59,275 bases of DNA from an uncultured Candidatus Saccharibacteria bacterium (GTDB taxonomy: Bacteria > Patescibacteriota > Saccharimonadia > CAILAD01 > GCA-016700035). Every line of letters begins with the position of its first letter. Position 1 is the stretch's first letter. Location: NCBI GenBank assembly GCA_964646575.1, contig CAZYFT010000004.1, forward strand, positions 1 through 59,275, in the 5' to 3' direction. This document shows positions 12,081 through 59,275 of the stretch, piece by piece. The translations under genes were made by a program, and so were the position numbers. The notes beneath the pieces were generated by a model. It ran no database searches. It saw only the letters and a list, made by a program, of their open reading frames with translations, and was not told where the DNA came from.

Positions 12081-12101
12081 GAATAATCAATAAAAACATT
12101 G

Positions 12102-12132
12102 ACCATACTATATATTTATGGTATGGTTTTTG
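12102..12132 (+). terminator. AT-rich hairpin plus T-run after the 112-aa gene (overlaps a possible TTGACC-N17-TATGGT promoter)
   Basis: ACCATAC (12102-12108) pairs with GTATGGT (12121-12127) around a 12-nt loop, followed by TTTTT. Confidence 0.5.
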
Positions 12133-12178
12133 TGTTATTCGCACCTGACAATTTGTCCCGAGAAAAATGAGGCACAGC

Positions 12179-13753: not shown

Positions 13754-13762
13754 TTTCACTTC

Positions 13763-13799
13763 GGGCGATCTGGGTAACTCCAGGTCGCCCTATTTTTTT
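13763..13799 (+). terminator. GC-rich intrinsic terminator of island gene 1
   Basis: GGGCGAtCTGG (13763-13773) pairs with CCAGgTCGCCC (13780-13790) with one mismatch, followed by TATTTTTTT. Confidence 0.75.
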
Positions 13800-13843
13800 G
13801 TTAACTTTCTTTGGCATAAGCATATTGACTTTACAAAAAACTA

Positions 13844-13872
13844 TTGCAAAATTATGCATTTTATGCTATTAT
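13844..13872 (+). promoter_or_regulatory. Sigma-70 promoter TTGCAA-N17-TATTAT in a ~25% G+C spacer, driving island gene 2
   Basis: -35 TTGCAA at 13844-13849 and -10 TATTAT at 13867-13872, preceded by an A-rich UP-like stretch. It is followed by a ~60-nt GC-rich leader with a GGGAGGGG SD before ATG 13939. Confidence 0.6.
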
Positions 13873-13938
13873 GCAACGGTATTCGTACCTCAACCCGGGT
13901 GTTGAAAAACCCCGGCACAACACACCCCGGGAGGGGAC

Positions 13939-14676
13939 ATGGCAAACCGAACCCAACGAACCGCACACGCGGAGGTGCTGCTCGCGCAGCGTCACCGTGC
14001 CGAGCACGACGACATCACTCGCCGCCTCGGCGAGGCGGAGGGCAAGCTGCAGCGTCTCGACGCTGCCGTCCAGGACCGTGAGGCCCAGCTCGATGCCGCC
14101 ACCAGCGAGTGGCTCAAGGGCATCGTGCGCGAAGAGCTCGCGGAGCTCAATCGCGAACGTGAAGACGTCAGGGGCCAGGTCTCCGGCTTCCGGCAGGAAC
14201 TCCAGCAGTTCGGCGAGCGGCTCGGAACCGTCGAGAACAACGTTCTTGGCCTCGGCAGTCGCATCGAAGGGCTGCAGGTCCACTCGGAGGCCCACGCCAC
14301 CGCGATCTCGCGGCTGGAGGCGGCCAACGGCTGGATCCCGCTCATCGGTGGGGTCATCACCGCGCTCGTCGTCTACTTCTTCATCGAAGGAGTGGAGTGG
14401 GTGCGAGGTGATCGCTTCACCACACAGAACCAGTGGTTCTGGGCAGTGCTCATCGGTGCCATCGTCGGCATCGTGCTGACCTGTCTGCCCGGTAACGGGC
14501 GCAGCATCATCACGCGTTCCACCGCCTCGGCGGGCGGAAACGTGGTGGTGGCACCGCAGCCTCCGGCAGATCAGCCGGCACCAGCTGCGGGCGTCACGCC
14601 TCCGCCACCCCCTCCTGCCGGGAGCCAGTTCTCGACTGTGCAGGCTGCAGCCGTAGCCAGTGCGTCGACGAACTGA
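13939..14676 (+). CDS. High-G+C island gene 2: coiled-coil protein with two TM helices and a poly-proline tail (245 aa)
   Basis: Almost every codon ends in G/C. It has N-terminal heptad-like repeats, TM segments WIPLIGGVITALVVYFFI and FWAVLIGAIVGIVLTCL, and a C-terminal PPPPPPAG. No domain was recognised. Confidence 0.8.
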   Translation: MANRTQRTAHAEVLLAQRHRAEHDDITRRLGEAEGKLQRLDAAVQDREAQLDAATSEWLKGIVREELAELNREREDVRGQVSGFRQELQQFGERLGTVENNVLGLGSRIEGLQVHSEAHATAISRLEAANGWIPLIGGVITALVVYFFIEGVEWVRGDRFTTQNQWFWAVLIGAIVGIVLTCLPGNGRSIITRSTASAGGNVVVAPQPPADQPAPAAGVTPPPPPPAGSQFSTVQAAAVASASTN

Positions 14677-14683
14677 CCCCGCG

Positions 14684-14728
14684 CTTCCTGGGGTCTTCGG
14701 ACCCCAGGAAGACACACTTTTGGTTTTA
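14684..14728 (+). terminator. Perfect 12-bp GC-rich hairpin terminator of island gene 2
   Basis: CTTCCTGGGGTC (14684-14695), loop TTCG, GACCCCAGGAAG (14700-14711), then ACACACTTTTGGTTTTA. Confidence 0.75.
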
Positions 14729-14844
14729 TTCTGGCCTTGAACGTGAACCTCTTGTAAAACAGAGATGAACGCTTGAAGTCAGAACCAGAACCTGAACATC
14801 CATCAAGAGTCGCATTCGCGACACCGACCACAAGGAGGTGCGCG

Positions 14845-15888
14845 ATGAGCGCTCCCAACTCTGCCCAGCAGAGGTTCTTCTTCAGCATCATCGGCGCTGC
14901 TGCGCTGTTGTTGTTGCTCTTCCCGGTCATCAAGGTGATCGCCGGCCCGCCCGACGCGGGTGCCGACGACGACCCGCCTGCGACCACGGCTCCAGCCGGC
15001 ACGTGCGGCGTGAACCAGGTGTTCTTCGCTCGTGAGACGGAGGGCAACCAGTTCGGCCCGGCCGCTCCGGAGGACCCCGCCAACGTGGCGGCAACGCAGG
15101 CGGACTTCGCCTCGCGGCGCTGCTCTGATGCGGCACTCCTCACAGGCGACTCTGAGTACCTCTTCAACGAGTTCTCGGACCCCGCCACCCGCGTGCAGAA
15201 GACCGTCGACCTCATGTCGAACCCGGACGCCTGGGCCCTCACCGAGATGCGCTTCCAGGCGCGCCTCAACGAGGCTACCAAGGTGGAGATCGTCGAGATG
15301 AGCGGCGCGTACCAGACCATGGACATGGAGGACAAGGGGAGGATCATCCCCGAGGTCTACCAGGTTCCGGTCGAAGCCGCGCCGTTCAAGGTGATCCGCT
15401 TCACGTTCCCGGACGGGACCGTGAAGCAGTTCAAGCTCAATTGCGGGTACCAGCCCGTGGAGCAGAACTTCCCGCCTTCGGTTCCCGGCAAGGGCGCTCC
15501 GCCTGCGCCAAACCAGCCCTCGCGGCCGGTGACGCCAGGCAAGCCCGGACGGCCGACCACGCCCGTGACAACGCCCGAGGCTCCCACTACCACTTGGAAG
15601 TGCCAGCAGGCAGTCGCGAACGGCCAGACGTGCGGTTCGGGTGGCAACAACCATCCTTCCCACGTGGACACCGAGCCGCTTCCGCCCACTCTGGACTACG
15701 TTCCGGGGAACGCTGAGGACTCGGCGGCGGATCCGGCTGACGGGGTGATCATCCCGCCGGGCGGCAACATGAGCCCGGGCGACACCAACGGGACGACCGG
15801 TGGCAACACCGGCTTCGACAACCCGGAACCGACCGAGGCCACGCCTCAGCCGGTCAACGAGCCCGGAGACCCTGGGGCGCCGGCCTAG
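14845..15888 (+). CDS. High-G+C island gene 3: membrane-anchored or secreted protein with a Cys-containing central domain and a Pro/Thr/Gly-rich tail (347 aa)
   Basis: AAGGAGG (14832-14838) lies 6 nt before ATG 14845. The N-terminus is QQRFFFSIIGAAALLLLLFPVIKVIAG (anchor/signal) and the tail is PSRPVTPGKPGRPTTPVTTPEAPTTT. The track ORF start at 14773 (TTG) lacks an SD. Confidence 0.75.
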   Translation: MSAPNSAQQRFFFSIIGAAALLLLLFPVIKVIAGPPDAGADDDPPATTAPAGTCGVNQVFFARETEGNQFGPAAPEDPANVAATQADFASRRCSDAALLTGDSEYLFNEFSDPATRVQKTVDLMSNPDAWALTEMRFQARLNEATKVEIVEMSGAYQTMDMEDKGRIIPEVYQVPVEAAPFKVIRFTFPDGTVKQFKLNCGYQPVEQNFPPSVPGKGAPPAPNQPSRPVTPGKPGRPTTPVTTPEAPTTTWKCQQAVANGQTCGSGGNNHPSHVDTEPLPPTLDYVPGNAEDSAADPADGVIIPPGGNMSPGDTNGTTGGNTGFDNPEPTEATPQPVNEPGDPGAPA

Positions 15889-15921
15889 CCGGTAGTTCCC
15901 AAAGGGTGTTCAGGTTCATCA

Positions 15922-16033: not shown

Positions 16034-16181
16034 TTACAGGTAATTGTTCACCTTTGCGGACAATAAACCTTTACAACTACAGGAAAAATACTGCAATTAT
16101 TACAGAGATTGACCACACGCATAAATGTTAAATAACCATAAGCGCTTTCCGACATTACGTCGCGAAAGAAAGGAGTCTCAT

Positions 16182-17372
16182 ATGATGACTGTGCTTTCTA
16201 AGTTGCGCTATGTAGCCTTCGCTGCATTGCTCAGCCTTCTGCCATTGGCAGCTCACGCCACGAGCCAGGTGCGCCTTGAATCAAAACTTGGTGTTGCTAA
16301 CGCGAGTGCCGGTGAGAATACGTACAAGCCAAGTACCAGTGCAAAAACCGACGAAACCGTTCAAGTTCAGCTTTGGTACCACAACATGGAAAATGCCGAT
16401 AGCGGCAAAGTAGCCAATAATGTAAAAGCAAAACTTCAGTTGCCAACCGCAGCTGGAAAAACCCAGAAAATCAACGGTACAATCTCTGCAGACAATGCCA
16501 ACACGGTAAACTCAAGCGCAAATGTAAACCTTGCACTTGATAACAGCCGTCTCGAGTATGTTCCAGGAACTGCAGTTTGGCGCCACAACAAGGGCACCAA
16601 CGAGCAGCCTAACTGGGTAACTGACACACTTACCGCAGCTCAGGAGCAACAGCTTTTGACTACGGGTGTAGTACTCGAAAATGGTAAGCCATGCTTCAAC
16701 TTCGAAGCTAGCGTATCTGTAAAATTGCGTGTTAAGACCGATATGGTTTCTATAACCAAACAAGTTCGTGTTCTTGGTGAAAAAGAATGGAAGAGTGAAA
16801 ACACTGCAAAAGCTGGTGACACACTTGAATACCTCATCACCTTTAAGAACGAAGGAAATACTGTTTTGAAGGATCTTGCAATTGCTGACAACATGCCAGC
16901 TTCTGTAACCTACGTAAACGGTACTACTCAACTTAAAAACATGAACAACCCGAACGGCATTAAGATTACCTCTGATAAAGTCACAAGTGGCGGAATCAAT
17001 GTAGGTAGTTATGCCCCAGGTTCTGTTGGTTATGTATGGTTCCAAGCGAAGATTGATCCTAATCTTAAGCCTGGCTCATATACCATGAAGAACGTTGCTG
17101 GCGTAAAAGCTGGTAACATCATGCGTGAAAACTATGCAGTCACTAAGGTTACAGTTGCAGGTAAGCCCACGCCTACCCCAACCACACCTCCTGTATCTCC
17201 AACTCCAACTCCTACCACTCCGGTAACTCCTGAGCAGCCAACCCTGCCTCAGACTGGTATCGAAACTGGTGTTGCTGGTCTGTTGGGAACCGGTGGTCTC
17301 ACCTACGCTGGTTATTTCTACCGAAAGAGCCGCAAAGGTTTGAGCGCTGCGTTGAAAAACGTTGTAAAGTAA
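16182..17372 (+). CDS. Sortase-anchored (LPXTG-type) cell-surface protein with repeated beta-rich domains
   Basis: AAAGGAG SD before ATG 16182 and signal peptide MMTVLSKLRYVAFAALLSLLPLAAHA. The C-terminal sorting signal is LPQTG (nt 17244-17258), a hydrophobic stretch and a basic tail (RKSRKG), with a PT-rich stalk before it. Confidence 0.85.
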   Translation: MMTVLSKLRYVAFAALLSLLPLAAHATSQVRLESKLGVANASAGENTYKPSTSAKTDETVQVQLWYHNMENADSGKVANNVKAKLQLPTAAGKTQKINGTISADNANTVNSSANVNLALDNSRLEYVPGTAVWRHNKGTNEQPNWVTDTLTAAQEQQLLTTGVVLENGKPCFNFEASVSVKLRVKTDMVSITKQVRVLGEKEWKSENTAKAGDTLEYLITFKNEGNTVLKDLAIADNMPASVTYVNGTTQLKNMNNPNGIKITSDKVTSGGINVGSYAPGSVGYVWFQAKIDPNLKPGSYTMKNVAGVKAGNIMRENYAVTKVTVAGKPTPTPTTPPVSPTPTPTTPVTPEQPTLPQTGIETGVAGLLGTGGLTYAGYFYRKSRKGLSAALKNVVK

Positions 17373-45082: not shown

Positions 45083-46066
45083 ATGAAAGCTTTGAAGCGC
45101 CTCTTAACGACACTGTTATCGCTTACTATCACAAGTCTTATTGCGGTTTGGAGTATTTTAGCCATAGTTGGGTCTGCTACGGCTATTAATAAACTTGTTG
45201 TGGCGAGTGGTGGCTATGAGACAGCAGCCACTCAAACGAGAACGGCGATGCTGTCGAGTGCAAATATCCCTGAACAATATCGATCTATAATTACGCAGGC
45301 ATTTGAAAACAGCATAACAGCACAGCAAATGGAGACGATTGTGCAGCCACTGCTGGTAGATATTGTCGGTTGGCTTGATCAGCCAGCTGGTACGCCGGCT
45401 CCACAGCTTGTGGTCAATTTGAGTCCTCTTAAGCAGCGACTAGAAACCGAGTTGGCTCAAGCACAGATCTCAGAAATCGAAAAAACTGCCCTTGTGGCTC
45501 AGGTTGGCAAACAGATACCTGATCAGCTCGATCTAGCGCGGGCTCAGGGCTTGGCCACCCAGCAAGGTGTTGAGGCACAGGCTACTCCCCCGGCATCTGA
45601 GGCAGTTACGGTGCTCGGAACATTTAAGGGTGTGTATGCAGCTTTACAGACTTTTTCTCTAGTTGGTTTGGCTGCCATGCTTGCCCTACTGGCTGGGGTA
45701 ATTGTTCTGAGCCGGCGCGACGGTCGAGCCATGCTTCGACGGCCAGCTTGGGCGTTTATTTCTGCTGGGCTACTTGCAACTATCATATGGATTGTGAGTC
45801 GGGTCGTGCAAGTTGACCAAGCTCAGCCGACATTGGTAATTGCTTTGAGTGTAGCTCGCGAAATATCAGGTATTGTGGTTTGGTATAGTTTGGCCTCCAT
45901 AGTTTTTGGGGCGGCACTCTACGGGTTGTCGTTTTTATTAAGGTCAGCCGCGGTAACATCAGGTGCTACTCCGATTGCAGTACCGCCGACCACTAATATA
46001 CCGGTGCCGACCACAGTCCCTGGTAGCTCCCAACAAAATGGAGTCAAGGAGAATAATCTAAGCTAA
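45083..46066 (+). CDS. Hypothetical membrane protein (N-terminal TM, extracytoplasmic helical domain, three C-terminal TMs, Pro-rich tail)
   Basis: MKALKRLLTTLLSLTITSLIAVWSILAIVG, plus hydrophobic blocks at ~45.65-45.95 kb. Confidence 0.7.
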   Translation: MKALKRLLTTLLSLTITSLIAVWSILAIVGSATAINKLVVASGGYETAATQTRTAMLSSANIPEQYRSIITQAFENSITAQQMETIVQPLLVDIVGWLDQPAGTPAPQLVVNLSPLKQRLETELAQAQISEIEKTALVAQVGKQIPDQLDLARAQGLATQQGVEAQATPPASEAVTVLGTFKGVYAALQTFSLVGLAAMLALLAGVIVLSRRDGRAMLRRPAWAFISAGLLATIIWIVSRVVQVDQAQPTLVIALSVAREISGIVVWYSLASIVFGAALYGLSFLLRSAAVTSGATPIAVPPTTNIPVPTTVPGSSQQNGVKENNLS

Positions 46067-48111
46067 ACGATTCCGGTGCGATTTTTCCAGCGTGGTTTAC
46101 GTAACTCGTACTGAATAAGTGACGCAAACAGCATAATCATAATGGCAATATTGGTTATGGGTGCTGTTATTTGTAGCAGGAGGTCTTGTTTGGCCTCCAG
46201 GGCAATGAGTATACGTGTGAGCATGGCAGCACCTAGGGCAATTGCGATCGAGATGAGGTGTACTTGCGTGCCAACTATAAGACTGTATATAAGTACAATT
46301 ACTGGCGTTGAGAATACAAACGTACCGGCCAGTACCAGGAAAATTGTGAGCGGAAAATGAAAACGCAGGGCTGGATAAAAGCGTTGAAGATTATCGTCAA
46401 TAATCCCCCTGAGTCCAAGGTGGTTTTGACTGGTCGCTAGATCGCTGGCTCGAAACAATTGTGCATGTAAGCCTTTATGACGAGCGCGATGGAAGAGCTC
46501 CTGATCTTCTAGCGGGCTTGCCCTTACGTCTTCAAAGCCACCAAATCTACGTATTTTTGCGCTATCGAAAGCAATAATGGAGCCATGAGCAGTCGAACGT
46601 TCAGGCGCATGCTCTTGCAGGAATCCGCTGGGGTACGCCGCCAGCATGAGATATTGGTTGTGGCTGAGGATAGTTTTTTGAGCCAACGATTTGTTTTGGT
46701 CGGCAGAAAGTAGAGACAGCACATCGAGCTTTTCTTGTTCCAGGAGCATGGCAATTTGAGCAAGTGTATTGGGTAGGAGAACGGTGTCAGCGGAGATGAG
46801 CACCGCGTATTCCCCGGTAGCTTGCTTTAAGAGCTGGTCGGCTGCCCAGGCATCTACACCCCAGCCAGGTTCAATCGGATCAATGGTAATGATACGCAGC
46901 CGTTTATCGGTGAAATTCTCGGCAATTTTGCGCGTGTTGTCTTCACTACCGAGATCTGTGAAGAGCACTTCAAAATCGGGATAATTTTGTCCTAGTGCAG
47001 CTAGAAGTGTAGAGGAAATATTTTCGGCCTGATTATAGGCGTGCGTCATGATAGTAATACGCGGCCATTCATCGAGCCGCTGTGTTTTAGGACGACGAAA
47101 AACCACGAAATTATGCGCAATCAGTAGAATTTGAGCAATAGAGAATAGGGTGCAGAACGTGAGTATGTAGTCGATGCGTCCGGGGCCCAAATTAAATGGA
47201 TCGGCCAGATAGAGAATGAGCTGGGTGAGCCAAAACCCAACTACGCCGTTGAGCCACATAAAGTTGGTCCAGGCTCGTCTAAACTGCTTCGATTGCGCAT
47301 CTGATGAATATTTAAGAAACATGGCAGCATTTAACGCGTAAATCCCCACTAAGAGTCCAGCCATGAGTGAAGATGGAAGATACACTATGCCCGCTAGTAT
47401 GGCGCTTGCAATATACAGCCAGAAGGCAAAGCGAATGGTACGGCGTGCTCCCCACTGCGTGGCGATTGAGCGAATATTGGCAGCTCGGTCCGGAATAATA
47501 TCTTGAATGGCACCGAGTGCGTGGGAGGCCATCCCCCAGAGGAAGAAAGCTATCGTGGGAAGCCAAGCGATTGTTGCTTGGGGGCTCACTATAAAGCCAA
47601 AAACGGCCGGTAGTACAAAGTGCAAGGATGAGTTTATTGAGTCAAGCACCGGGATTTCTTTAAAACGCAGTCCCTTAAGTGAGTAGGTTACCGCCAGGAT
47701 TACGGTAAGGGCAAGCACGATTTTTCCGTTTTGGCCGATGAGCGAACCTAGCCATACGAGACTGACGATGTTTGTTGCAATGATTGCTCCCCACAAGGCG
47801 CCTCGGGCTTGCGGGGCAACGATCGACCCCTCCAGGCTGCCTTTGCGTGGGTTTTTGAGGTCGGACTCGTAATCATAAATATCGTTTACGCCATATACCA
47901 ATAAGTTGTAGGGCAGTAAGAAATACACCAGGCCGGCCCAAAATGATTGATCGAGCTGGCCGCCCGAGAGTAAAAAGGCGATAGCAAATGGGAAAGCGGT
48001 ATTAACCCAGCTAATTGGCCTTGATGCGGCGAGTATTTGGCTGAGTTTTTTTAGAGCCGGCGTTTGGCTTGTGGCCGGTTTTTTGTGATGCTGGTGATTT
48101 GCTTGTGTCAT
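46063..48111 (-). CDS. crtEb: Fusion protein: UbiA-type carotenoid prenyltransferase (lycopene elongase CrtEb/LyeJ-like), GT2 glycosyltransferase and C-terminal TM helices
   Basis: N-half: SRPISWVNTAFPF and VNDIYDYESDLKNPRKGSLEG (NDxxDxxxD), as in lycopene elongases. C-half from ~47.06 kb: ITIMTHAYNQAENISSTLLAALGQNYPDFEVLFTDLGSEDNT (GT2 fold). The start is ATG 48111 or 48150. Confidence 0.78.
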   Translation of the reverse strand: MTQANHQHHKKPATSQTPALKKLSQILAASRPISWVNTAFPFAIAFLLSGGQLDQSFWAGLVYFLLPYNLLVYGVNDIYDYESDLKNPRKGSLEGSIVAPQARGALWGAIIATNIVSLVWLGSLIGQNGKIVLALTVILAVTYSLKGLRFKEIPVLDSINSSLHFVLPAVFGFIVSPQATIAWLPTIAFFLWGMASHALGAIQDIIPDRAANIRSIATQWGARRTIRFAFWLYIASAILAGIVYLPSSLMAGLLVGIYALNAAMFLKYSSDAQSKQFRRAWTNFMWLNGVVGFWLTQLILYLADPFNLGPGRIDYILTFCTLFSIAQILLIAHNFVVFRRPKTQRLDEWPRITIMTHAYNQAENISSTLLAALGQNYPDFEVLFTDLGSEDNTRKIAENFTDKRLRIITIDPIEPGWGVDAWAADQLLKQATGEYAVLISADTVLLPNTLAQIAMLLEQEKLDVLSLLSADQNKSLAQKTILSHNQYLMLAAYPSGFLQEHAPERSTAHGSIIAFDSAKIRRFGGFEDVRASPLEDQELFHRARHKGLHAQLFRASDLATSQNHLGLRGIIDDNLQRFYPALRFHFPLTIFLVLAGTFVFSTPVIVLIYSLIVGTQVHLISIAIALGAAMLTRILIALEAKQDLLLQITAPITNIAIMIMLFASLIQYELRKPRWKNRTGIV

Positions 48112-48406
48112 GGCGAGAGTAAAAATAGTTCCACAGTGTGGGTCCTGCATACAATGCTACCACCAAGTAGGCCAAATCTTCTATCGGCCAGCTGACTATT
48201 TTAAATCCGAGCACCTTTGCCCAATCATACCGTACGATCGCGAGGCTCGTGAGATAGGTGTTAAACACTACCATCATGAGATATAAGGTAATTCCGGCAA
48301 GCAATAGATGTTTTCTGGGTTTTGGGTTGGGATCTAAGCGTTGCACAACAAGAGCTGCGATTAAAATAAAAACACCGTTTAGCAGAATATAGGTTAGCTT
48401 TTCCAT
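48011..48406 (-). CDS. crtYf: Lycopene-cyclase-domain small membrane subunit (CrtYf-like)
   Basis: 131 aa with ~3 TM helices and a PxE(E/D) motif (WPIEDLAYLVV). The start overlaps the upstream stop (TAATG). The last ~33 codons overlap the crtEb frame. Confidence 0.72.
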   Translation of the reverse strand: MEKLTYILLNGVFILIAALVVQRLDPNPKPRKHLLLAGITLYLMMVVFNTYLTSLAIVRYDWAKVLGFKIVSWPIEDLAYLVVALYAGPTLWNYFYSRHDTSKSPASQKTGHKPNAGSKKTQPNTRRIKAN

Positions 48407-48750
48407 TATTTGTACCTCGAAACGTAATAGCGTTTGCTGGCCGCATCAATAATGAGCACGGAGTACACAAGTAACACAAGAAAGAAAATTTCTTCGATTG
48501 GGAGGTTTGGTGTACCAAGGTTTATACCTAGGGTATAGTGTGGATTTGTATAGAAGATGCCCAACAGTATTCCGGCAATATCCCAGACAAGGAAAAAACC
48601 TACCAACGTGGCGATGGTGGCGAGTGTTGCTTTTTTTGCTCTCGCATTCTTCCAGGCTACAAGTTTCCAGCGTATATCGCAGAGGATAAGCCCTGCGATG
48701 CTTACCAGCAAGATGACGGCATACGTCCATTGGGTCTCGAGTAGTTGCAT
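48406..48750 (-). CDS. crtYe: Lycopene-cyclase-domain small membrane subunit (CrtYe-like)
   Basis: 114 aa with 3 TM helices and a PxEE motif (LPIEEIFFLVLL). Confidence 0.8.
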   Translation of the reverse strand: MQLLETQWTYAVILLVSIAGLILCDIRWKLVAWKNARAKKATLATIATLVGFFLVWDIAGILLGIFYTNPHYTLGINLGTPNLPIEEIFFLVLLVYSVLIIDAASKRYYVSRYK

Positions 48751-48760
48751 ACATCTATAG

Positions 48761-48766
48761 TATACT
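48761..48766 (+). promoter_or_regulatory. -10 box TATACT (overlapping TATAGT) 8 nt upstream of the crtI ATG, in the divergent crtY/crtI spacer
   Basis: TATAGT at 48756-48761, TATACT at 48761-48766, ATG at 48775. Confidence 0.35.
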
Positions 48767-48774
48767 GCTTTCTA

Positions 48775-50298
48775 ATGAAAAAGCAGACGAAGAAAAAGAC
48801 TCAGCGCACTGCAATTGTGGTTGGCGCCGGTATTGGCGGGTTATCGGCCGCTGCTCGCCTGGCTAAAGATGGTTGGAAGGTCACCATACTTGAGAAAGAG
48901 GCGTTGATTGGTGGTCGAGCTCACCGTATCGATCAAGATGGCTACCGGTTTGATACGGGCCCGACAATCTTGATGATGACTGATGTTCTCTACGATACCT
49001 TTGCCTATTGTGGTAAGAATTTTGACGACTACATCGACCTTCAGCAGCTTGAGCCAAATTATCAGGTTTTCTTCCCCGATGGACAGACAATCGAGGTAAG
49101 CTCAAATTTGCCACGGTTTGCCAAGGAATTAGCAAAAATTGACGAGAAAGCTCCGGAGCAGTTTTACCGTTATTTTGCTGACGTGGCAAAAATCTATCGC
49201 CTAGCTCGCAGCCAGTTTATTGATAAAAACTTCGACAAACTCACGGACTTTATTAATGTAAAGGCTGGTCTTCAGCTGGCTAAGGGTCGCGGCCTGTATA
49301 GGCTCTATAATTTTGTATCGCGTTATTTTACCGACCCACGTTTGCGTCAGCTTTTTTCATTCCAGTCTATGTATCTTGGTGTGACACCCTATGAAGCTCC
49401 GGCTGTGTATTCTGTGGTGAGCTATATGGAGACTGGACTGGGCATTTGGTACCCCAAGGGCGGTATGCATGCGCTTCCGCGGGCCTTCGGTAGGCTTTGT
49501 GAGGATTTGGGTATTGAGATTCGCACGAAAACGCCAATTGACGAGATCCTTGTTGAAAACAAACAGGCGGTTGGGGTGAGGTTATCTGATGGAACGCGCC
49601 TCGATGCGGATATTGTTGTTTCAAATGCTGATCTCACCTATACCTACAAGAAGTTACTAGCACCCGAGCATCGCAAGCGCTATCCGGATCAAAAAGTCGA
49701 TAAACTCAAGCAAGCTTCTAGCGCGATGTTGTTTTACTGGGGAGTTGATCATGATCTCGATGGACTTTTGCATCACAATGTGTACTTTTCCGAAGATTTT
49801 AAGCATAATCTCGAAGAAATTTTCCATGAGAAGATTCTGCCAGACGATCCGGCTTTCTATTTGTATATTCCAACCAAGACTGACCCAAGTTTGGCGCCAA
49901 AAGGTAAGAACGTTCTCTATGTTCTGGTACCGGTGCCAAATCTTACGGGAGATGTTGATTGGGATAAAGGCGTCGAAAAGATTCGCAAGCGTGTCTTGGA
50001 GCGCATGAAGACTGTTTTAGGTCAGGATGTAGAAAAGCATATCGAGACTGAGGCAATATTTACTCCGGAGGATTTCTTGACGCGATTCAATCTCACAGAT
50101 GGTTCGGCTTTTGGTTTGAGTCACCACTTTTTTCAGTCGGGTTATTTCCGGCCACATAACGTGAGTCGCGAAGTGAAGGGATTGTATTTTGTTGGTGCCT
50201 CGACCTATCCCGGTAGTGGTGTACCAATGGTTACCTTATCTGGTAAGCTAGTTGCAGAACGGATTGAAACAGATGTCAAAAGTGGAAAAATCACCTGA
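48775..50298 (+). CDS. crtI: Phytoene desaturase
   Basis: FAD-binding fold AIVVGAGIGGLSAAARLAKDGWKVTILEK and C-terminal YFVGASTYPGSGVP. About 507 aa from ATG 48775. Confidence 0.9.
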   Translation: MKKQTKKKTQRTAIVVGAGIGGLSAAARLAKDGWKVTILEKEALIGGRAHRIDQDGYRFDTGPTILMMTDVLYDTFAYCGKNFDDYIDLQQLEPNYQVFFPDGQTIEVSSNLPRFAKELAKIDEKAPEQFYRYFADVAKIYRLARSQFIDKNFDKLTDFINVKAGLQLAKGRGLYRLYNFVSRYFTDPRLRQLFSFQSMYLGVTPYEAPAVYSVVSYMETGLGIWYPKGGMHALPRAFGRLCEDLGIEIRTKTPIDEILVENKQAVGVRLSDGTRLDADIVVSNADLTYTYKKLLAPEHRKRYPDQKVDKLKQASSAMLFYWGVDHDLDGLLHHNVYFSEDFKHNLEEIFHEKILPDDPAFYLYIPTKTDPSLAPKGKNVLYVLVPVPNLTGDVDWDKGVEKIRKRVLERMKTVLGQDVEKHIETEAIFTPEDFLTRFNLTDGSAFGLSHHFFQSGYFRPHNVSREVKGLYFVGASTYPGSGVPMVTLSGKLVAERIETDVKSGKIT

Positions 50299-51361
50299 AC
50301 TAGCTGCTGCCATTGCCCATGTAAAGGGGTTGACCGATCGCGAGTTGGCAATTTTCTTTGACTTGCGTGCTTCCGAAGCTGGTAAATATGATGCGCAATA
50401 CAAACGTTTGCTCTTAGAGATGAAAAAATTCTCATTGCGTGGTGGTAAGCGTTTGCGTCCATTTATGACCTATCTCGGCTATAAGCTGGGTGGCGGTAAA
50501 AATGATGAGGCTTTTGCACGGCTGGCACTAGCCTGGGAGGTATATCACCTCGGAGCCCTCATTCATGACGATATTATGGATCAGGATGATCGCCGTCATG
50601 GTGGACTCAACGTTGCAGGGGTGTATGAAAAGCAGCTCAAGCGCAAGTTTTCGGATGAAGTTGCCCATAAGCACTCACTCAATGCTGCCTTAATGGCCGG
50701 CGATGCTGCACTTTTAATGGCTGTGGAGCTCATTACGACCATTCCGACCGAACCGGAGACTCGCGACCGATTACTATCTGACTTCTTAAAGATGCATTTT
50801 AGATTGGTGGGGGGACAGTTTGTGGAAGATTTTGCAGCTTTAGAGCCCAAGCTGACCCCGCAGCAAATTCGTAAGATATATGTAAATAAGTCCGGTAATT
50901 ATTCTATGGTGGCTCCGCTGCGATCAGGCGCAGTATTAGCGGGTGCGAACGATACGATTCTTTCAATACTCGAGCGCTATGGTCTTCATGCAGGTGTAGC
51001 ATTTCAGATTACTGATGATCTGTTGGGGATGTTTGGATCGGCGAAAGAAATTGGGAAGCCAACAATTACAGACCTTCGTGAAGGTAAGCGCACGCTACTT
51101 ATGCACTATGGTGAAAAGTTCTCAAATGAGGCCGATCGAGCAGTGTTGGCAGCAAAATTTGGCAATCCAAATGTAAATACTCAAGACTTAAAGTTAGTAC
51201 GAAAGCTTTTGACTGACAATGGAGCGAAGGCCAAGACGATTTTTACTGCACAGGCTGAGGCAGACGCTGCGCGCAAAGCAATTTCAAAATTGGCATTGCC
51301 TGGAGAACTGCCAAAATTATTTGATGATCTAACGCAGTATCTCACTGGAAGGAGCAAGTAG
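50273..51361 (+). CDS. crtE: Polyprenyl (geranylgeranyl) diphosphate synthase
   Basis: First Asp-rich motif LIHDDIMDQDDRRHG and second motif FQITDDLLGMFGSAKEIGKP. The start is ATG 50273 or GTG 50282, overlapping the crtI end. Confidence 0.88.
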   Translation: MSKVEKSPELAAAIAHVKGLTDRELAIFFDLRASEAGKYDAQYKRLLLEMKKFSLRGGKRLRPFMTYLGYKLGGGKNDEAFARLALAWEVYHLGALIHDDIMDQDDRRHGGLNVAGVYEKQLKRKFSDEVAHKHSLNAALMAGDAALLMAVELITTIPTEPETRDRLLSDFLKMHFRLVGGQFVEDFAALEPKLTPQQIRKIYVNKSGNYSMVAPLRSGAVLAGANDTILSILERYGLHAGVAFQITDDLLGMFGSAKEIGKPTITDLREGKRTLLMHYGEKFSNEADRAVLAAKFGNPNVNTQDLKLVRKLLTDNGAKAKTIFTAQAEADAARKAISKLALPGELPKLFDDLTQYLTGRSK

Positions 51362-51366
51362 ACTAC

Positions 51367-52212
51367 GTGGAGGGCAGCTTGAAACAGAGTTATCAAGCGT
51401 GTCGCCGTATCACCGCTCAAGCCAGTTCTACATTTTATTTAGCCTCGCTATTATTTGAGGGCGCCACTCGCCGAGATATCCAGGCCCTCTACGCATTTTG
51501 TCGTGTTGCCGATGATATTGCTGATTCTACAACCTTATCGTCGAGTGAAAAGCGTAGCAAGATTTCGGCAATGCGAAACGCAATCATACAGCGCAAGACC
51601 CCAGATGTGGAGCCAGCAATTTGGGCGGCAGTTTGGCATGTGAGTGATGAGTATGTGTTGCCGCAAGCTGAATTGCTTGAGGTTTTGGATGGCGTTGAGT
51701 CGGACATATCGTTCAGTCAACCAAAGACACTCCGCGATTTAGACACCTACAGTTACTATGTAGCGGGGGTGGTGGGCATTTTAAGTGCCCGTATTCTGGG
51801 GGCGACAAGCAAGCGTGGCTTTGAAGCTGCCAAAAATCTCGGCATCGCCATGCAGTACACGAATATTATTCGCGATGTGGCGAGCGATACTTCTCTTAAG
51901 CGCACGTATATTCCACTGAGCTTAGTTAAGAAATATAAGCTAAACAGTCGTGACGCCACACAGAGTGATCAGCTTCATCTTGCAATCGCTGAACTTTCAA
52001 ACCGTGCTCAAAGCTTTTATGACTTAGCGGCGCCCGGTATCACCGATATTCCTACTCGACACCGTAAGCCTGTCCAGGTTGCTTTTGAGTTGTACCATGG
52101 CATCCTCGAACGAGTGAAGCAAAAGCAGTATAATGTGAGTATCGGTCGTGTTCGCCTTAACCGCTTGAGCAAACTACAGGTTGTGTGGCGGGTGTACACC
52201 GGCCAATCATAA
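51367..52212 (+). CDS. crtB: Phytoene synthase
   Basis: FCRVADDIADS and YTNIIRDVASD motifs of the squalene/phytoene synthase family. GTG start 6 nt after the crtE stop. Confidence 0.9.
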   Translation: MEGSLKQSYQACRRITAQASSTFYLASLLFEGATRRDIQALYAFCRVADDIADSTTLSSSEKRSKISAMRNAIIQRKTPDVEPAIWAAVWHVSDEYVLPQAELLEVLDGVESDISFSQPKTLRDLDTYSYYVAGVVGILSARILGATSKRGFEAAKNLGIAMQYTNIIRDVASDTSLKRTYIPLSLVKKYKLNSRDATQSDQLHLAIAELSNRAQSFYDLAAPGITDIPTRHRKPVQVAFELYHGILERVKQKQYNVSIGRVRLNRLSKLQVVWRVYTGQS

Positions 52213-55038: not shown

Positions 55039-55989
55039 ATGGCAAAGAAAACTGAAGAAACCCCAGAAATTACCCCCGAAGAACAGGCGATTGTTGAGGA
55101 AGTAATTGAAGAAATTGTAGAAGATGAAGTAGTAGCTGAAGATGCTACAGAGAAGAAGGCTACTGCTAAGGCTGGTAAGCGCAGCGCGAAAGCCGTGAAA
55201 GAAGCCGAAGAAGAGGCCGAAAAAGAAGCTCGTAAAGCCGAGGCAGCCGAGAAGGAAGACGCTCCAAAGCCAAAGCAGAAGCCACGCGTAAAGAAATACT
55301 CGAAAAATCAGAAGGCTATGCGCGAAGCGATTGATTTTAACAAGCTTTATTCTTCAGAAGAAGCAGTAGCGCTTGTAAAAGAAATCAGTCAGGCTAAGTT
55401 TGACCCAACTCTAGAAGTGCATGTACGCTTAGATATTGATCCGCGTCAGGCTGATCAGATGTTGCGCGCTTCGACTGTGTTACCAGCTGGAACCGGTAAG
55501 GCTGTTCGCGTTGCTGTACTTACGAGCGACGAGAAGAAAGCTGCCGCTGCCAAGGAAGCCGGTGCTGAAATGACAAATTCTGAAGATTTGCTCGCAGCTA
55601 TCGGTAAGGGTACGTTTGAGTTTGACGTACTGGTTGCAACTCCAGACATGATGCCGCAACTCGGTCGCCATGCTAAGGCGCTCGGTCCAAAAGGCCTCAT
55701 GCCATCTCCAAAGAGCGGTACTGTTTCGGCCGATCCAGCTAATGCTGTTGGTGAAATTAAAAAAGGCCGTTTGGAAATTAAAAACGACGCGAATGGGATT
55801 GTTCATGCTGCAGTTGGTAAGCTGTCTTTCAAAGACGAAGATCTTTTGGTCAACCTAAAGGCCGTACTAAATTGCGTGCAGGCCAATCGTCCAAGTGGCG
55901 TGAAGGGCACATACGTAAAAAGTATTTCCGTATCTGCCACTATGACTCCTGGTATTAAGCTCGATACTGCAGAGCTTGCAAAGAAGTAA
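55039..55989 (+). CDS. rplA: 50S ribosomal protein L1 with an ~83-aa Glu/Lys/Ala-rich N-terminal extension
   Basis: The canonical L1 core starts near KKYSKNQKAMREAIDF...VHVRLDIDPRQADQMLRASTVLPAGTGK. AAGGAG lies 7 nt before ATG 55039, supporting the long form (316 aa). Confidence 0.92.
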   Translation: MAKKTEETPEITPEEQAIVEEVIEEIVEDEVVAEDATEKKATAKAGKRSAKAVKEAEEEAEKEARKAEAAEKEDAPKPKQKPRVKKYSKNQKAMREAIDFNKLYSSEEAVALVKEISQAKFDPTLEVHVRLDIDPRQADQMLRASTVLPAGTGKAVRVAVLTSDEKKAAAAKEAGAEMTNSEDLLAAIGKGTFEFDVLVATPDMMPQLGRHAKALGPKGLMPSPKSGTVSADPANAVGEIKKGRLEIKNDANGIVHAAVGKLSFKDEDLLVNLKAVLNCVQANRPSGVKGTYVKSISVSATMTPGIKLDTAELAKK

Positions 55990-56046: not shown

Positions 56047-56116
56047 TATGCTTGGTGGAGTACTTGCTAAACAGATACACTAGAAAGGTATTTGTACCTC
56101 AAAGTCAGGAGACAAG

Positions 56117-56941
56117 ATGGCTGCCGAGAAGCCATTGAAGATGCACGACATTCGTGAGTTGTGGCAAAAGCTTCAGCGATTTGTACCAAGCGAAGTTTTC
56201 TCCAACTGGAGTACTCGTAACTGGTGGTGGAACGTGCTGCATGAACTGTTGCGACGTCCTCGGGGTGTACTCTCTGATGAGGAGATTCGTGTTGCTCAGG
56301 AGCGTGGTGATGTTGTCATCGAGCCGTTTATTGAGAGTCAGCTCAACACGGCCAGCTATGACATCCGTCTCGGCGAGTGGTATTACCTGTGTGAGGCGAT
56401 GCCGTTTGAGAGTGACTTCAATCCATGGGACCCAGAAGATGTTGAGCGCTACTACAAGGGGCCTTTGCGGGCGATGACGAATCGAGAATGGTGCGATAGG
56501 TATCGCCAGGGGCGCCTTTGGCGCGAGATCCCTGCAGATGCTTTGATCATCGTGCTTCGGCCAGGTGAGTGTATCTTGGGCCACACCCAGGAATTCATCG
56601 GCTCGCGCCGCGATGTGGTCACCATGATGCACGCCCGCTCTTCGATTGGTCGTGTAAACATCTCAACCTGCGATGATGCAGGCTGGGGCGACATCGGCTA
56701 CATCAATCGCTGGACGATGGAAATTCGCAATAAGAATAATGCAGTTGTTCCACTGGTGGTTGGTGAACGTATGGGTCAGATCATCTTTTTTGCAGCCGGT
56801 CCAACCGATCGAAGTTATGGCAACGAAGGGCATTACCAGTCGTCTCGCAACCTGGATGAGCTCCGTCAGAACTGGAAGCCGGCAGACATGTTGCCGCGCT
56901 TGCAGCTCGATACGGATGGGCTAGGAGTGAACCATGGATGA
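56117..56941 (+). CDS. dCTP deaminase / dUTPase-superfamily protein with N- and C-terminal extensions
   Basis: VVIEPFIESQLNTASYDIRLG, SSIGRVNISTCDDAGWGDIGYINRWTMEIRN (Glu of the LE(F/I) motif conserved) and GERMGQIIFF. 274 aa versus the ~190 typical of Dcd. CAGGAG SD. Confidence 0.72.
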   Translation: MAAEKPLKMHDIRELWQKLQRFVPSEVFSNWSTRNWWWNVLHELLRRPRGVLSDEEIRVAQERGDVVIEPFIESQLNTASYDIRLGEWYYLCEAMPFESDFNPWDPEDVERYYKGPLRAMTNREWCDRYRQGRLWREIPADALIIVLRPGECILGHTQEFIGSRRDVVTMMHARSSIGRVNISTCDDAGWGDIGYINRWTMEIRNKNNAVVPLVVGERMGQIIFFAAGPTDRSYGNEGHYQSSRNLDELRQNWKPADMLPRLQLDTDGLGVNHG

Positions 56942-57605
56942 CATTTTCTATGATAGTAAATTCTGGCATGGGCCACCGCGGTTTATCGCCGTCGAGGGTC
57001 CAGATGGTGCTGGCAAGTCTACGTTGGTGACAGGCCTGGTGACCTGGATGCGCGAGGAGCTTGGGCTTGAGGTTGAGCAACTTTTGGAGCCTGGTAGTGG
57101 TCGATTGGCTAGCGAGCTTCGGGCAATTCTCTTGATGGGCGAGATGGACATCAGTACATACGAAGAGATCATGCTCATGACCGCCGCGAGAGTGGATACT
57201 CGTCTTCGCCATGTTCAGCCGGCGCTTACAACTGGTAAGTGGGTGATCTGCGATCGAGCCGAACTTTCCACCATCGTATACCAAGGGTTTGCTCGTGATG
57301 AAGGGGCGATGCTGTTTGCAAAGCAGCAACAGGATATGATTCGAGCCCAGGTAAGACGGGCTGATTTATATCTAGTGCTACAGCTCGCATATGATAAAGC
57401 GCAGCTGCGCCTATTGGGGACTGGCAAGCTACCGGATCGCTTTGAGAGTGCTGATGTGCGCTTTCGGCAGCGAGTCAGTTTGGGTTTTGAGCTAATCGAC
57501 AATCTTGTTCCTGGAGAATACCGGATGGCTCACATTGATGCCAGTGTAACCCCCGAGGAGCTGGTCCAGCTTGCCATCCTGGCTATTCAGGCTGAGTGCT
57601 CCTAA
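56934..57605 (+). CDS. tmk: Thymidylate (dTMP) kinase family protein
   Basis: P-loop FIAVEGPDGAGKST, LEPGSGRLASELRAILL and ICDRAELSTIVYQG. It overlaps the dcd-like stop by 8 nt (ATGGATGA). Confidence 0.85.
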   Translation: MDDIFYDSKFWHGPPRFIAVEGPDGAGKSTLVTGLVTWMREELGLEVEQLLEPGSGRLASELRAILLMGEMDISTYEEIMLMTAARVDTRLRHVQPALTTGKWVICDRAELSTIVYQGFARDEGAMLFAKQQQDMIRAQVRRADLYLVLQLAYDKAQLRLLGTGKLPDRFESADVRFRQRVSLGFELIDNLVPGEYRMAHIDASVTPEELVQLAILAIQAECS

Positions 57606-57612
57606 TTCATTC

Positions 57613-57639
57613 ATCCCAGTTGAAAGGCTGGGATTTTTA
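57613..57639 (+). terminator. Intrinsic terminator after tmk
   Basis: ATCCCAG / CTGGGAT stem with loop TTGAAAGG, followed by TTTTT. Confidence 0.7.
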
Positions 57640-57653
57640 TTGTGCCAAATCTA

Positions 57654-57662
57654 TGCTATAAT
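57654..57662 (+). promoter_or_regulatory. Extended -10 promoter (TGcTATAAT) of the ThyX-like gene
   Basis: TG at 57654-57655, TATAAT at 57657-57662, AAGGAG SD at 57686-57691, ATG at 57701. Confidence 0.5.
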
Positions 57663-57700
57663 GCCGTGGATCTTGCACCTAAAAGAAGGAGAAGAGCTAC

Positions 57701-58858
57701 ATGGGCTACGGATGCCGTACATTGGCAGATTCGCTTTGTCATAATCGGGCTGGTGAGTTTCGCCTCACCACCTTCGAGATAACGTTGCCGAGGATGGTCT
57801 TGGCTGAGTTCAACACCCACACCATTCTTTCGCGCAACAGCGCCAGCTCGCGCGCGATTCCGGTGAAGAAGCAACTGCGTCGTGTGCTTGATGACCCGTA
57901 TGTCCCTTTTTATTGGGGGAAGAATGTGCCGGGCATGCAGGCACCGGAGCCGATTCCCGAGGATCGCATTCCTGAGGCTTCGCGAATCTGGCTGCTAGGT
58001 CGGAATCGAGCTATCATTACCACCCTCGCTGAACTGCTGGGTGAAGTCAAGCTCGATTGGGCCTGTCGGGAGACTATCGACTGCGATCAGCATGACATCA
58101 CGCGGTTGTCGGATGAAGTGCAGGAGCAAGCCCTCCGCCAATTGGTAGATCTGGCAAGCGAACTCCTTGACGATGAGTCTGAGGCTGATCTTATTCTCAA
58201 TGTTCACAAGCAGCTTGCCAATCGGCTGCTCGAGCCCTTCATGTGGCACACCATTATCACGACCGCAACTGAATGGCGGAATTTCTTTGCGCTGCGTTCA
58301 CACAATGATGCTCAGCCTGAGATCCGTGTCATCGCTGAGATGATGCGAGATGTCTATGGCATGGAGCTCCCAGGTGACGCTTATAATGATAAGATGCGCT
58401 ACCAGCCATATCGTGAATGGTCCGAAGCTGGTTATACGGCCTCAGAGCCAGTTGAGCTGGCGGCCGATGAGTGGCATACGCCGCTTCTGACTCGTGATCA
58501 GATGAATAGATATGGCATCGATTGGGATGTGGCGCGCGATGTCTCGGTTGGACGCTGTGCTCGAGTAAGTTATCTGACTCACGATGGGCGAGAAGATTGG
58601 GAAGAGGATGTTTTTCTGGCTCGTGAACGCTTGCAGCCCAGCGGGCATATGTCACCATTCCAGCATGTTGGCCGACCGATGCGTGATGATGAACTCAAGC
58701 CGGTTGTCTATTTCTACGAAGAGGCTGGTGATATGCAGATCGGTTGGGACGGCGAATATAGCGCTTGGTCTGGCAATTTTCAGGGTTTCATGCAGTACCG
58801 CAAGATGTTGCCGCATGAGTTCGATTTCTCAGAAGTTCTGGTACAGAATCACACATAA
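57701..58858 (+). CDS. Divergent ThyX (flavin-dependent thymidylate synthase)-fold protein, 385 aa, with RHR motif replaced by THT
   Basis: [22 protein letters not shown] aligns with ThyX [36 protein letters not shown] aligns with NFLNLRADSHAQWEI. ARVSY...GHMSPFQHV, normally N-terminal in ThyX, lies near the C-terminus. Confidence 0.72.
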   Translation: [385 protein letters not shown]

Positions 58859-58866
58859 GCACTCGG

Positions 58867-58896
58867 CCCCACCTTACTAGGTGGGGTATTTTTTTA
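58867..58896 (+). terminator. Intrinsic terminator after the ThyX-like gene
   Basis: CCCCACCT (58867-58874), loop TACT, AGGTGGGG (58879-58886), then TATTTTTTTAT. Confidence 0.8.
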
Positions 58897-59275
58897 TTGA
58901 TGATGCTAAATTTATGAATAATTACCTTTATTCCCCCTCATACCCCTTGTGCTAGAACTATCACCAAGCCTATAATAGACCCTATAGTTTTTGATGAGGG
59001 TAGTAATGAACACTGCAGTAGGTAGTGAGTAGTACTTGGTTGTAAGGTATGAATAAAGTCAGAAACACAGACCCCACCAAGTCAACCAATTCAAATCTGA
59101 GGCGCATCCATGACATCCGTCATCCCCAGTCCTCAGACCAACCAACTAACCGACCCCGCCGTGTCGGTCGTCTGTTATCATGGCGACTCCCAAACCGTCG
59201 AGTCCTCCGAGCTCGTCTAGTTACCATTACAAACAAATGGACCATCACTACAGCCCGTCTGCGCCAGTTGGCACT

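Follow-up and report, generated by a model that had tools for sequence, protein, structure and literature searches.

A probable flavin-dependent thymidylate synthase of Candidatus Saccharibacteria with a rearranged order of the conserved ThyX blocks

Flavin-dependent thymidylate synthase, or ThyX, is a drug target and the textbook second, unrelated route to thymidylate (dTMP). The enzyme is usually recognized by the signature RHRX7S, and some surveys filter candidates on this motif. The present analysis concerns a ThyX-like gene at positions 57701–58858 of a 59,275-nucleotide stretch of DNA, termed here the window, which comprises positions 1–59,275 of contig CAZYFT010000004.1 (assembly GCA_964646575.1, forward strand) from an uncultured Candidatus Saccharibacteria bacterium. 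The 385-amino-acid product lacks both arginines of the signature and carries the conserved ThyX blocks in a different order. The parts of the gene are as follows, with the equivalent residues of Thermotoga maritima ThyX given after the equals sign:

57701–58858, + strand: ThyX-like gene of 385 amino acids with rearranged block order (open reading frame; Pfam Thy1, E = 1.2e-12; phrog_85 'thymidylate synthase', 1.7e-59; AlphaFold2 model with a mean predicted local distance difference test score, pLDDT, of 95.3)
57791–57856, + strand: ThyX-motif block, residues 31–52 (R31, E36, R45, S49 = S88, R51 = R90), corresponding to T. maritima 70–91 (alignments with ThyX of the PDB; conservation in 266–407 relatives)
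57815–57823, + strand: codons ACC CAC ACC for T39-H40-T41, where canonical ThyX has RHR (sequence)
58007–58192, + strand: helical region, residues ~103–164, of which ~53 residues are found only in the clade of this protein (alignment with the 295-amino-acid relative P0010 and with phage proteins; model helices at 87–164)
58205–58324, + strand: C-terminal ThyX blocks, with R175 = R147 and with residues 194–208 including R199 = R174 (alignments with ThyX of the PDB; both Arg invariant or nearly so)
58358–58435, + strand: clade-specific insertion of 26 residues, 220–245 (alignment)
58532–58669, + strand: relocated block, residues 278–323, ending in GHMSPFQHV, with S290 = S30 and H316 = H53, corresponding to T. 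maritima 19–59 (phmmer and profile searches of the PDB; re-ordering)
58661–58663, + strand: codon for Q321, which is Glu in relatives and in canonical ThyX (E58 in the GHETPFEH of T. maritima) and changes together with T41
58769–58804, + strand: family-specific C-terminal block with R367, with no counterpart in canonical ThyX (R367 in 407 of 407 sequences; conserved in phage members)

Canonical ThyX proteins display three conserved blocks in the order AARVSF...GHxxPxEH, RHR...SxR and NFxxLR. Relative to this, the block order in the 385-amino-acid protein is 2-3-1. A phmmer comparison with the PDB aligns residues 278–323 with positions 30–72 of T. maritima ThyX, residues 24–52 with 75–103, and residues 175–219 with 165–206, in the numbering of a tagged construct where 30–72 represents native residues of about 19–59. 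A profile built from 121 relatives gives the same non-collinear order against the PDB, with E-values of 1.6e-4 and 0.012 for the stretches. The Pfam Thy1 profile (PF02511) scores 48.5 bits, above the cut-off of 24.8, but residues 13–218 match only positions 49–184 of the 191 in the hidden Markov model (HMM), and the first 48 HMM positions have no counterpart at the N-terminal end.

When residues 248–323 are placed in silico before residues 20–247, Thy1 matches as one stretch over HMM positions 11–184, with a gain in score from 48.5 to 55.3 bits. The same re-ordering of P0010 changes a Thy1 match of 68.3 bits in two stretches to one of 78.4 bits in a single stretch, and its score with the ThyX equivalog model TIGR02170 goes from 69.4 to 79.3 bits, again in one stretch, covering positions 12–200 of 211. 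Both re-ordered sequences still fall under the TIGR02170 cut-off of 87.9, at 57.5 bits (385-amino-acid protein) and 79.3 bits (P0010). Because the PDB alignments, the family profile and the re-ordering test agree, the rearranged order is, as judged by these comparisons, real and not a product of chance.

The block that moved consists of helices alpha-1 and alpha-2 with S30, H53 and E58 (T. maritima numbering), and it is now found C-terminal to the last canonical helix. A family N-terminal beta-strand (residues 4–15) and the strand leading into the motif together form a hairpin. Constructs with this strand set ahead of the relocated block do not extend the Pfam match below HMM positions 11–12, and neither the strand nor the EWHxPL segment matches HMM positions 1–10 in any arrangement tried. 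The rearrangement may be a circular permutation in the strict sense, or a single block may have been transposed with beta-1 retained. A partially duplicated, or '1.5-copy', ThyX was also considered and rejected: an hhalign comparison of N-terminal with C-terminal sub-alignments of the family yields only matches of 5–10 columns at a probability below 1%. The same self-comparison lends no support to the conserved C-terminal tail of the family, GNFxGWxQYRK, as a remnant of a second RHR block.

The gene had been singled out by an original prediction made from the DNA letters, and most of what it described is present. This holds for the 385-amino-acid reading frame on the + strand, the probable ThyX fold (indicated by the Thy1 score and by the best structural matches, ThyX and PolB), the THT codons, the downstream block of NFxxLR type at residues 194–208, and the AARVSF...GHETPFEH-like segment near the C-terminus, which phmmer and the family profile align at residues 278–323. 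The ThyX motif order given there was correct, and the extended -10 element, Shine-Dalgarno sequence and terminator that it had assigned to the gene are all located as described. GHMSPFQHV lies at 58643–58669 as it had stated, whereas its start for CARVSY, 58559, is one codon late, the motif being at 58556–58573. Of the permuted or partially duplicated fold that it envisaged, the rearranged order stands and the duplication does not. The profile alignment that it had called for does not reveal a normal collinear ThyX with an insertion, the match being confined to HMM positions 49–184 until the blocks are re-ordered.

Structural modelling predicts a single domain, with confidence over the whole chain (predicted template-modelling score, pTM, 0.91). 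The top Foldseek matches of the model in the PDB are all ThyX, from Mycobacterium tuberculosis and T. maritima, or PolB, with probability 1.0. Template-modelling scores (TM-scores) normalized to the query are only 0.20–0.33, as would be expected if Foldseek, which aligns in sequence order, can cover only part of a rearranged fold. A fold search of BFVD finds phage thymidylate synthases with no more than moderate TM-scores, the best being 0.62 normalized to the query.

The rearranged proteins form a very large family. A protein search for relatives gives more than 7,976 matches, all with Pfam Thy1; most of the relatives are 280–340 amino acids in length and come from metagenome-assembled genomes (MAGs) of Saccharimonadia and Solirubrobacterales, and those with names are called FAD-dependent thymidylate synthase. 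An exhaustive profile search at E<=1e-30 finds 4,178 representatives of clusters formed at 50% identity. Among GTDB species genomes, the family was confirmed at 421 loci, mostly of Solirubrobacterales and Saccharibacteria, with the cultured Svornostia abyssi J379 among them. In addition, a full-length relative labelled thymidylate synthase is present in 1,034 phage GenBank records, which include ICP1 (gp193), N4-like Erwinia phages, Pakpunavirus, rV5-like and phi92-like coliphages, and phiCbK-like Caulobacter phages. Phage papers call the gene simply thyX, and a literature search found no description of the rearranged order.

The protein of the window is collinear with hundreds of these relatives at a coverage of 97–100%, and its phrog_85 match extends over residues 19–375. 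The start, MAYxAKILADS, and the full length are common to hundreds of relatives, and the block order is the same in every one. Thus the possibility that the rearrangement stems from an alignment artefact, a mis-called start or a frameshift is refuted by the alignment of relatives, the family profile and the re-ordering test, which restores a single collinear match; with a model confident over the whole chain as well and no support found, we give it virtually no chance. The length of 385 amino acids is, by the alignments, the sum of clade-specific insertions and the family-wide C-terminal extension: in comparison with the 295-amino-acid members there are ~53 extra residues between W97 and H169, the 26-residue insertion and a slightly longer C-terminal hairpin. 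As a separate matter, the homologue of the rV5-like Escherichia phage vB_EcoM-ECP26 is annotated as two open reading frames, A0A4Y5TVX3 (245 amino acids) and A0A4Y5TVY4 (97 amino acids). This points to a gene that is split, frameshifted or interrupted by another element.

Conservation within the family is strong. S49, R51, K170, R199 and R367 are present in all 407 relatives aligned, and R175, H259, H316 and S290 in 406 of them. Residues that bind or polarize dUMP in T. maritima ThyX are kept (S88 as S49, R90 as R51, R147 as R175, R174 as R199), and so are H53 (H316), H79 (H40) and S30 (S290). Altogether, invariance across the rearranged family extends to more than 30 positions, including every dUMP-site residue. 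The protein of the window has the whole subfamily-invariant set of E36, T39, R45, S49, R51, K170, R175, R199, H259, R285, R288, S290, H316 and R367, and differs from the subfamily consensus in the pair R41/E321, where it has T41/Q321.

The signature of this protein reads T-H-T-X7-S against the canonical RHRX7S, with H40 and S49 kept and both Arg replaced. The two replacements have different histories. The family consensus is T-H-R-X7-S: Thr is at the first position in all of 266 unique sequences and in ~398 of the 407 of the larger set, and RHR is found in only two sequences of the rearranged family. The rearranged order and the first Thr are family-wide and not special to the gene at 57701–58858. 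Arginines that bind FAD phosphate in T. maritima are lost throughout the family (R78 to T39, R165 to T190); the clade of the window's protein has in addition lost R80 (to T41), always together with E58 (to Q321). In solved enzymes the RHR motif mainly hydrogen-bonds the phosphates and ribityl of flavin adenine dinucleotide (FAD), and the first Arg alone also contacts the flavin ring and dUMP (PMC6514825). On this basis, Thr at the first motif position is to be read as a family-wide remodelling of the flavin site, of which T190 at the R165 position is a part.

The second Thr is a minority state. Position 41 is Arg in 369 of the 407 sequences (~91%), Cys in 11, Lys in 8, Thr in 8, Gly in 4 and Asn in 2. 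Because Cys, Lys, Gly and Asn are also accepted there, Arg41 is not indispensable in the rearranged family. Thr41 is found in the clade of the window's protein (six sequences, 61–97% identical), in relative P0027 and in viral contig L122, and all of these have Gln321. One T-H-N sequence has Gln321 as well, so that Q321 is paired with Thr or Asn at position 41 in nine of nine cases and never with Arg41. In a neighbour-joining tree calculated with columns 41 and 321 left out, the clade is monophyletic, and P0027 and L122 are placed separately among sequences with Arg and Glu; the double change therefore has at least three independent origins. This recurrence looks like that of a compensated pair, and the two residues may therefore interact, directly or via the same ligand. 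R41 and E321 would be in contact with one another or with one common part of the flavin cofactor, and T41/Q321 would be a neutral, compensated swap. The recurrence argues for THT as a compensated variant and not a new pocket. Q76V, K280D and R298E are also specific to the clade.

Inteins are found in several relatives exactly between the T-H-R-x-F and S-R-N of the motif. Intein or insertion sequences are carried by P0153, P0161, P0166, P0172, P0173, P0168, P0185 and P0235; one intein has an HNH nuclease, and a second site of insertion is close to the GHxSP block, where P0168 has a LAGLIDADG domain. Inteins typically occupy functionally critical sites or catalytic motifs. Among these relatives, P0185 has the motif T-V-R, and P0168 and P0235 have T-H-K.

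The signals around the gene and its nearest neighbours are as follows:

56117–56941, + strand: dcd, encoding dCTP deaminase (Pfam DCD, 1.1e-32; TIGR02274, 91.3 bits against a cut-off of 92.8)
56934–57605, + strand: tmk, encoding dTMP kinase (Pfam Thymidylate_kin; TIGR00041, 98.5 bits, exceeding the cut-off of 83.25)
57613–57634, + strand: terminator-like hairpin with a T-run, 3' of tmk
57654–57662, + strand: extended -10 promoter-like element TGcTATAAT, with TG at 57654–57655 and TATAAT at 57657–57662 (read from the sequence)
57686–57691, + strand: Shine-Dalgarno sequence AAGGAG, 9 nucleotides 5' of the ATG (sequence)
58866–58887, + strand: terminator-like hairpin with a T-run, 3' of the thyX-like gene

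A consensus scan found no -35/-10 pair at the 57654–57662 element. Upstream of the thyX-like gene and on the same strand are nusG, rplK, rplA, dcd and tmk (Pfam/NCBIfam), and the dCTP deaminase is extended at its N-terminus by ~50 residues. In nine other Saccharibacteria loci, dcd and usually also tmk adjoin the homologue, in three different gene orders, and this points to selection joining the steps from dCTP to dUTP or dUMP, to dTMP and to dTDP. Phage members of the rearranged family are found near genes for dCTP deaminase or ribonucleotide reductase. A tblastn search for a second thymidylate synthase, with Escherichia coli ThyA and T. maritima ThyX as queries, found none in the window and 84 loci with flanks of +/-10 kb.

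The thyX-like gene appears to be under purifying selection: relative to an orthologue of 97% identity, 36 codons differ synonymously and 10 non-synonymously. Together with tmk it is nucleotide-identical to a contig of MAG STL-PAT11 (JAXLZV010000001.1, referred to below as L005). From ~56700 to its end the window is the same as L005 except for two differences near 59000, with no differences in tmk and thyX, whereas upstream of ~56700 the two are only ~75% identical. With another relative, L001, the pattern is reversed, there being 97% identity upstream to position 56056 and 93% downstream. The breakpoint region of this mosaic, 56056–56700, is inside dcd, and the window represents either a very recent recombination that involved the 3' end of dcd, tmk and thyX, or an assembly chimera.

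In our judgement the gene at 57701–58858 probably encodes a flavin-dependent thymidylate synthase of the ThyX type that belongs to a subfamily with rearranged block order. The best reading is that of a working dTMP synthase whose topology is rearranged and whose flavin-phosphate site is remodelled. We favour catalysis by the ThyX mechanism because the dUMP-site residues are invariant, the gene shows purifying selection, it is linked to dcd and tmk, phage relatives lie near genes of nucleotide metabolism, and inteins are sited in the motif. The enzyme would bind FAD and be reduced by NAD(P)H, and the methylene of 5,10-methylene-tetrahydrofolate would pass to flavin N5 and from there to C5 of dUMP, giving dTMP as in canonical ThyX. 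The neighbouring Dcd would begin the supply of dUMP precursors by converting dCTP to dUTP (or dUMP), and the neighbouring Tmk would phosphorylate the dTMP produced. The phosphate contacts of the lost arginines would be taken over by basic residues that are invariant in this family, and R31, R45, K170, R285, R288 and R367 are probably the replacements. The family as a whole is apparently an undescribed and very widespread topological variant of ThyX, and the gene of the window a rare, compensated T-H-T/Gln sub-variant.

Several points weigh against this assignment. Three to four canonical FAD-binding residues are changed, and the details of cofactor binding must therefore be different. With TIGR02170 the protein scores 45.7 bits, below the curated cut-off of 87.9. 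No biochemical assay of a rearranged-family protein turned up in a literature search, and there is no member among the PDB matches by phmmer, profile or Foldseek. The contact between R41 and E321 and the positions of the new basic residues are proposals drawn from sequence. Neighbourhoods in Solirubrobacterales give no functional hint; among 10 candidate open reading frames of Svornostia abyssi (L011), an AMP-binding enzyme is the sole Pfam match. The scan for a second thymidylate synthase extended over the window and over +/-10 kb on either side of the loci, which is only a small fraction of each genome.

The protein, its clade or even the whole family might instead be a neofunctionalized relative of ThyX that acts on another pyrimidine nucleotide, such as UMP or dCMP, or transfers another group, as in hydroxymethylation. 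The change of the motif to THT, the altered equivalents of the FAD contacts R78, R80, R165 and E58, the score under the TIGR02170 cut-off and the insertions peculiar to the clade would fit this proposal, and PolB, a ThyX paralogue with a changed specificity, is among the structural matches. However, all dUMP-binding and polarizing residues of the solved enzymes are kept, the gene is grouped in several Saccharibacteria with the genes for the steps on either side of dTMP synthesis, and members of the family occur in over 400 species genomes and in over 1,000 phages. To our knowledge, phages with rearranged-family members are not known for thymine hypermodification. The known pathways of such hypermodification begin from ThyA-type enzymes, which also speaks against it. 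The T41/Q321 pair recurs inside otherwise ordinary lineages in a pattern that looks neutral-compensatory. We consider a new function unlikely.

The original prediction had suggested an altered substrate pocket and perhaps a new pyrimidine-modifying or thymidylate-synthase-like enzyme, and had described both arginines of the motif as contacts of the dUMP phosphate. That description is not accurate, in that the motif mainly binds the phosphates and ribityl of FAD and only its first Arg touches dUMP (PMC6514825). The suggestion of a special enzyme is not supported. The order of blocks and the first Thr belong to a family of 4,178 clusters and 1,034 phage records annotated as thymidylate synthase; the second Thr is a recurrent minority state that always goes with E321Q; and the dcd-tmk-thyX neighbourhood argues for ordinary dTMP synthesis. 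The survey of homologues for THT against RHR, which it had suggested, gives a divided answer, with Thr family-wide at the first position and in only 8 of 407 sequences at position 41.

A related concern is that the rebuilt flavin site, which is without the equivalents of R78, R165, R80 and E58 and has new invariant residues in R45, K170, H259 and R367, may have altered the chemistry or the cofactor, be it the flavin, the reductant or the product. This is likewise improbable, but if true, the label 'thymidylate synthase' on thousands of genes of phages and candidate phyla would be partly wrong. In a narrower form, the THT/Gln clade would still make dTMP and bind flavin differently, with flavin mononucleotide for FAD, or with FAD as a loose co-substrate. 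E58 of T. maritima ThyX is reportedly an FAD contact, as described in a structure paper of 2003. R80 is another, as part of RHR (PMC6514825), and the equivalents of both are neutralized together in the clade. Yet the data also fit a simple salt bridge swapped for a hydrogen-bonded pair, and position 41 varies (Cys, Lys, Gly, Asn) in members that keep E321. We hold the narrower form to be quite unlikely. Even with all versions of a changed cofactor mode or substrate taken together, a departure of this type seems unlikely.

A catalytically dead ThyX, or a regulatory or structural remnant, would account for the loss of two of the three signature-motif residues and for the low scores with curated ThyX models. 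It would leave unexplained the more than 30 family-invariant positions with every dUMP-site residue among them, the excess of synonymous over non-synonymous changes, the gene's own promoter-like element, Shine-Dalgarno sequence and terminator, and its retention in a small genome (the identical gene is on a relative's contig of 644 kb). We regard a dead protein as very improbable.

The preferred reading, a working ThyX with rearranged topology, can be set against known systems. Canonical ThyX (T. maritima TM0449, PDB 1O26; M. tuberculosis ThyX, PDB 2AF6/3GWC) belongs to the same Pfam Thy1 family and gives the best structural matches. The equivalents of S88, R90, R147, R174, H53, S30 and H79 are conserved, and the expected metabolic place, between dUMP supply and dTMP kinase, is the same. 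The differences are that the block corresponding to T. maritima 19–59 follows the last canonical helix, that RHR is T-H-R in the family and T-H-T in the window's protein, that the R165 equivalent is Thr, and that a conserved C-terminal tail with the invariant R367 is added, with 385 amino acids against ~220–250.

Closer relatives are the phage proteins of PHROG 85 (ICP1 gp193, Erwinia phage Ea9-2 gp47, Pakpunavirus orf115 and those of rV5-like and phi92-like phages). These are collinear with the window's protein over the full length at 25–37% identity (tblastn), and share with it the T-H-R position, SRNxxSSRAIP, HKQxxNRLLEP, DAQPEI, EWHxP, CAxVSY, HxSPxEH and GNFxGxxQxR. Unlike it, they have R41/E321, are without the two insertions of its clade and are ~317–321 amino acids in length. 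No published experimental enzymology of these phage proteins was found. PolB of Streptomyces cacaoi (PDB 4P5A), the ThyX paralogue that methylates UMP as well as dUMP, has the ThyX fold with extra loops and altered specificity, and shows the highest TM-score among the PDB matches (0.33 normalized to the query, 0.54 to the target). Unlike the protein described here, which is rearranged and encoded beside dcd and tmk, PolB keeps the collinear ThyX order and is encoded in an antibiotic gene cluster.

The findings show that a very large branch of ThyX, which includes proteins of model phages (ICP1, N4-like, Pakpunavirus and rV5-like), Saccharibacteria and Solirubrobacterales, has a different block order and is without the first Arg of the motif. 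This branch bears on how an active site built from three subunits survives rearrangement and on which residues replace the flavin-phosphate ligands. The recurrent R41T/E321Q double change offers a ready-made natural experiment on the flavin site. With respect to annotation, genes of the rearranged family are probably named correctly, though on a partial Pfam match only.

Other regions of the window were also noted. An Rfam scan of the window returned tRNA-Leu only. A 3.7-kb island at 12100–15900 has a G+C content of ~62% against 48% for the genome and encodes Ala/Pro/Asp/Glu-rich proteins of 528, 245 and 371 amino acids. These match no NCBIfam family and have no tandem repeats; the 245-amino-acid protein shows weak, far sub-threshold matches to SMC coiled coils. 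The island was possibly acquired horizontally. A carotenoid-type cluster at 46063–52212 encodes a UbiA prenyltransferase-GT2 glycosyltransferase fusion, a phytoene-desaturase-like amine oxidase, a polyprenyl synthetase and a phytoene synthase, along with two small open reading frames with lycopene-cyclase domains (annotated in L001). It resembles actinobacterial C50-carotenoid clusters, which would not be expected where the genome is reduced.

Ribosomal protein L1, encoded at 55039–55989, has a Glu/Lys/Ala-rich N-terminal extension of 112 residues before the Pfam L1 domain (113–304). The gene that follows the terminator of the thyX-like gene begins at 59049, runs to the end of the window at 59275 and continues in L005 (11349–17660); it encodes 2,103 amino acids with 18 NHL repeats, fn3 and a C-terminal HATPase_c, an ATPase of the histidine-kinase type. 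At 16125–17372 there is a gene for a secreted protein of 415 amino acids; it has a linker rich in Pro and Thr and, close to the C-terminus, an LPQTG anchor motif of the sortase type.

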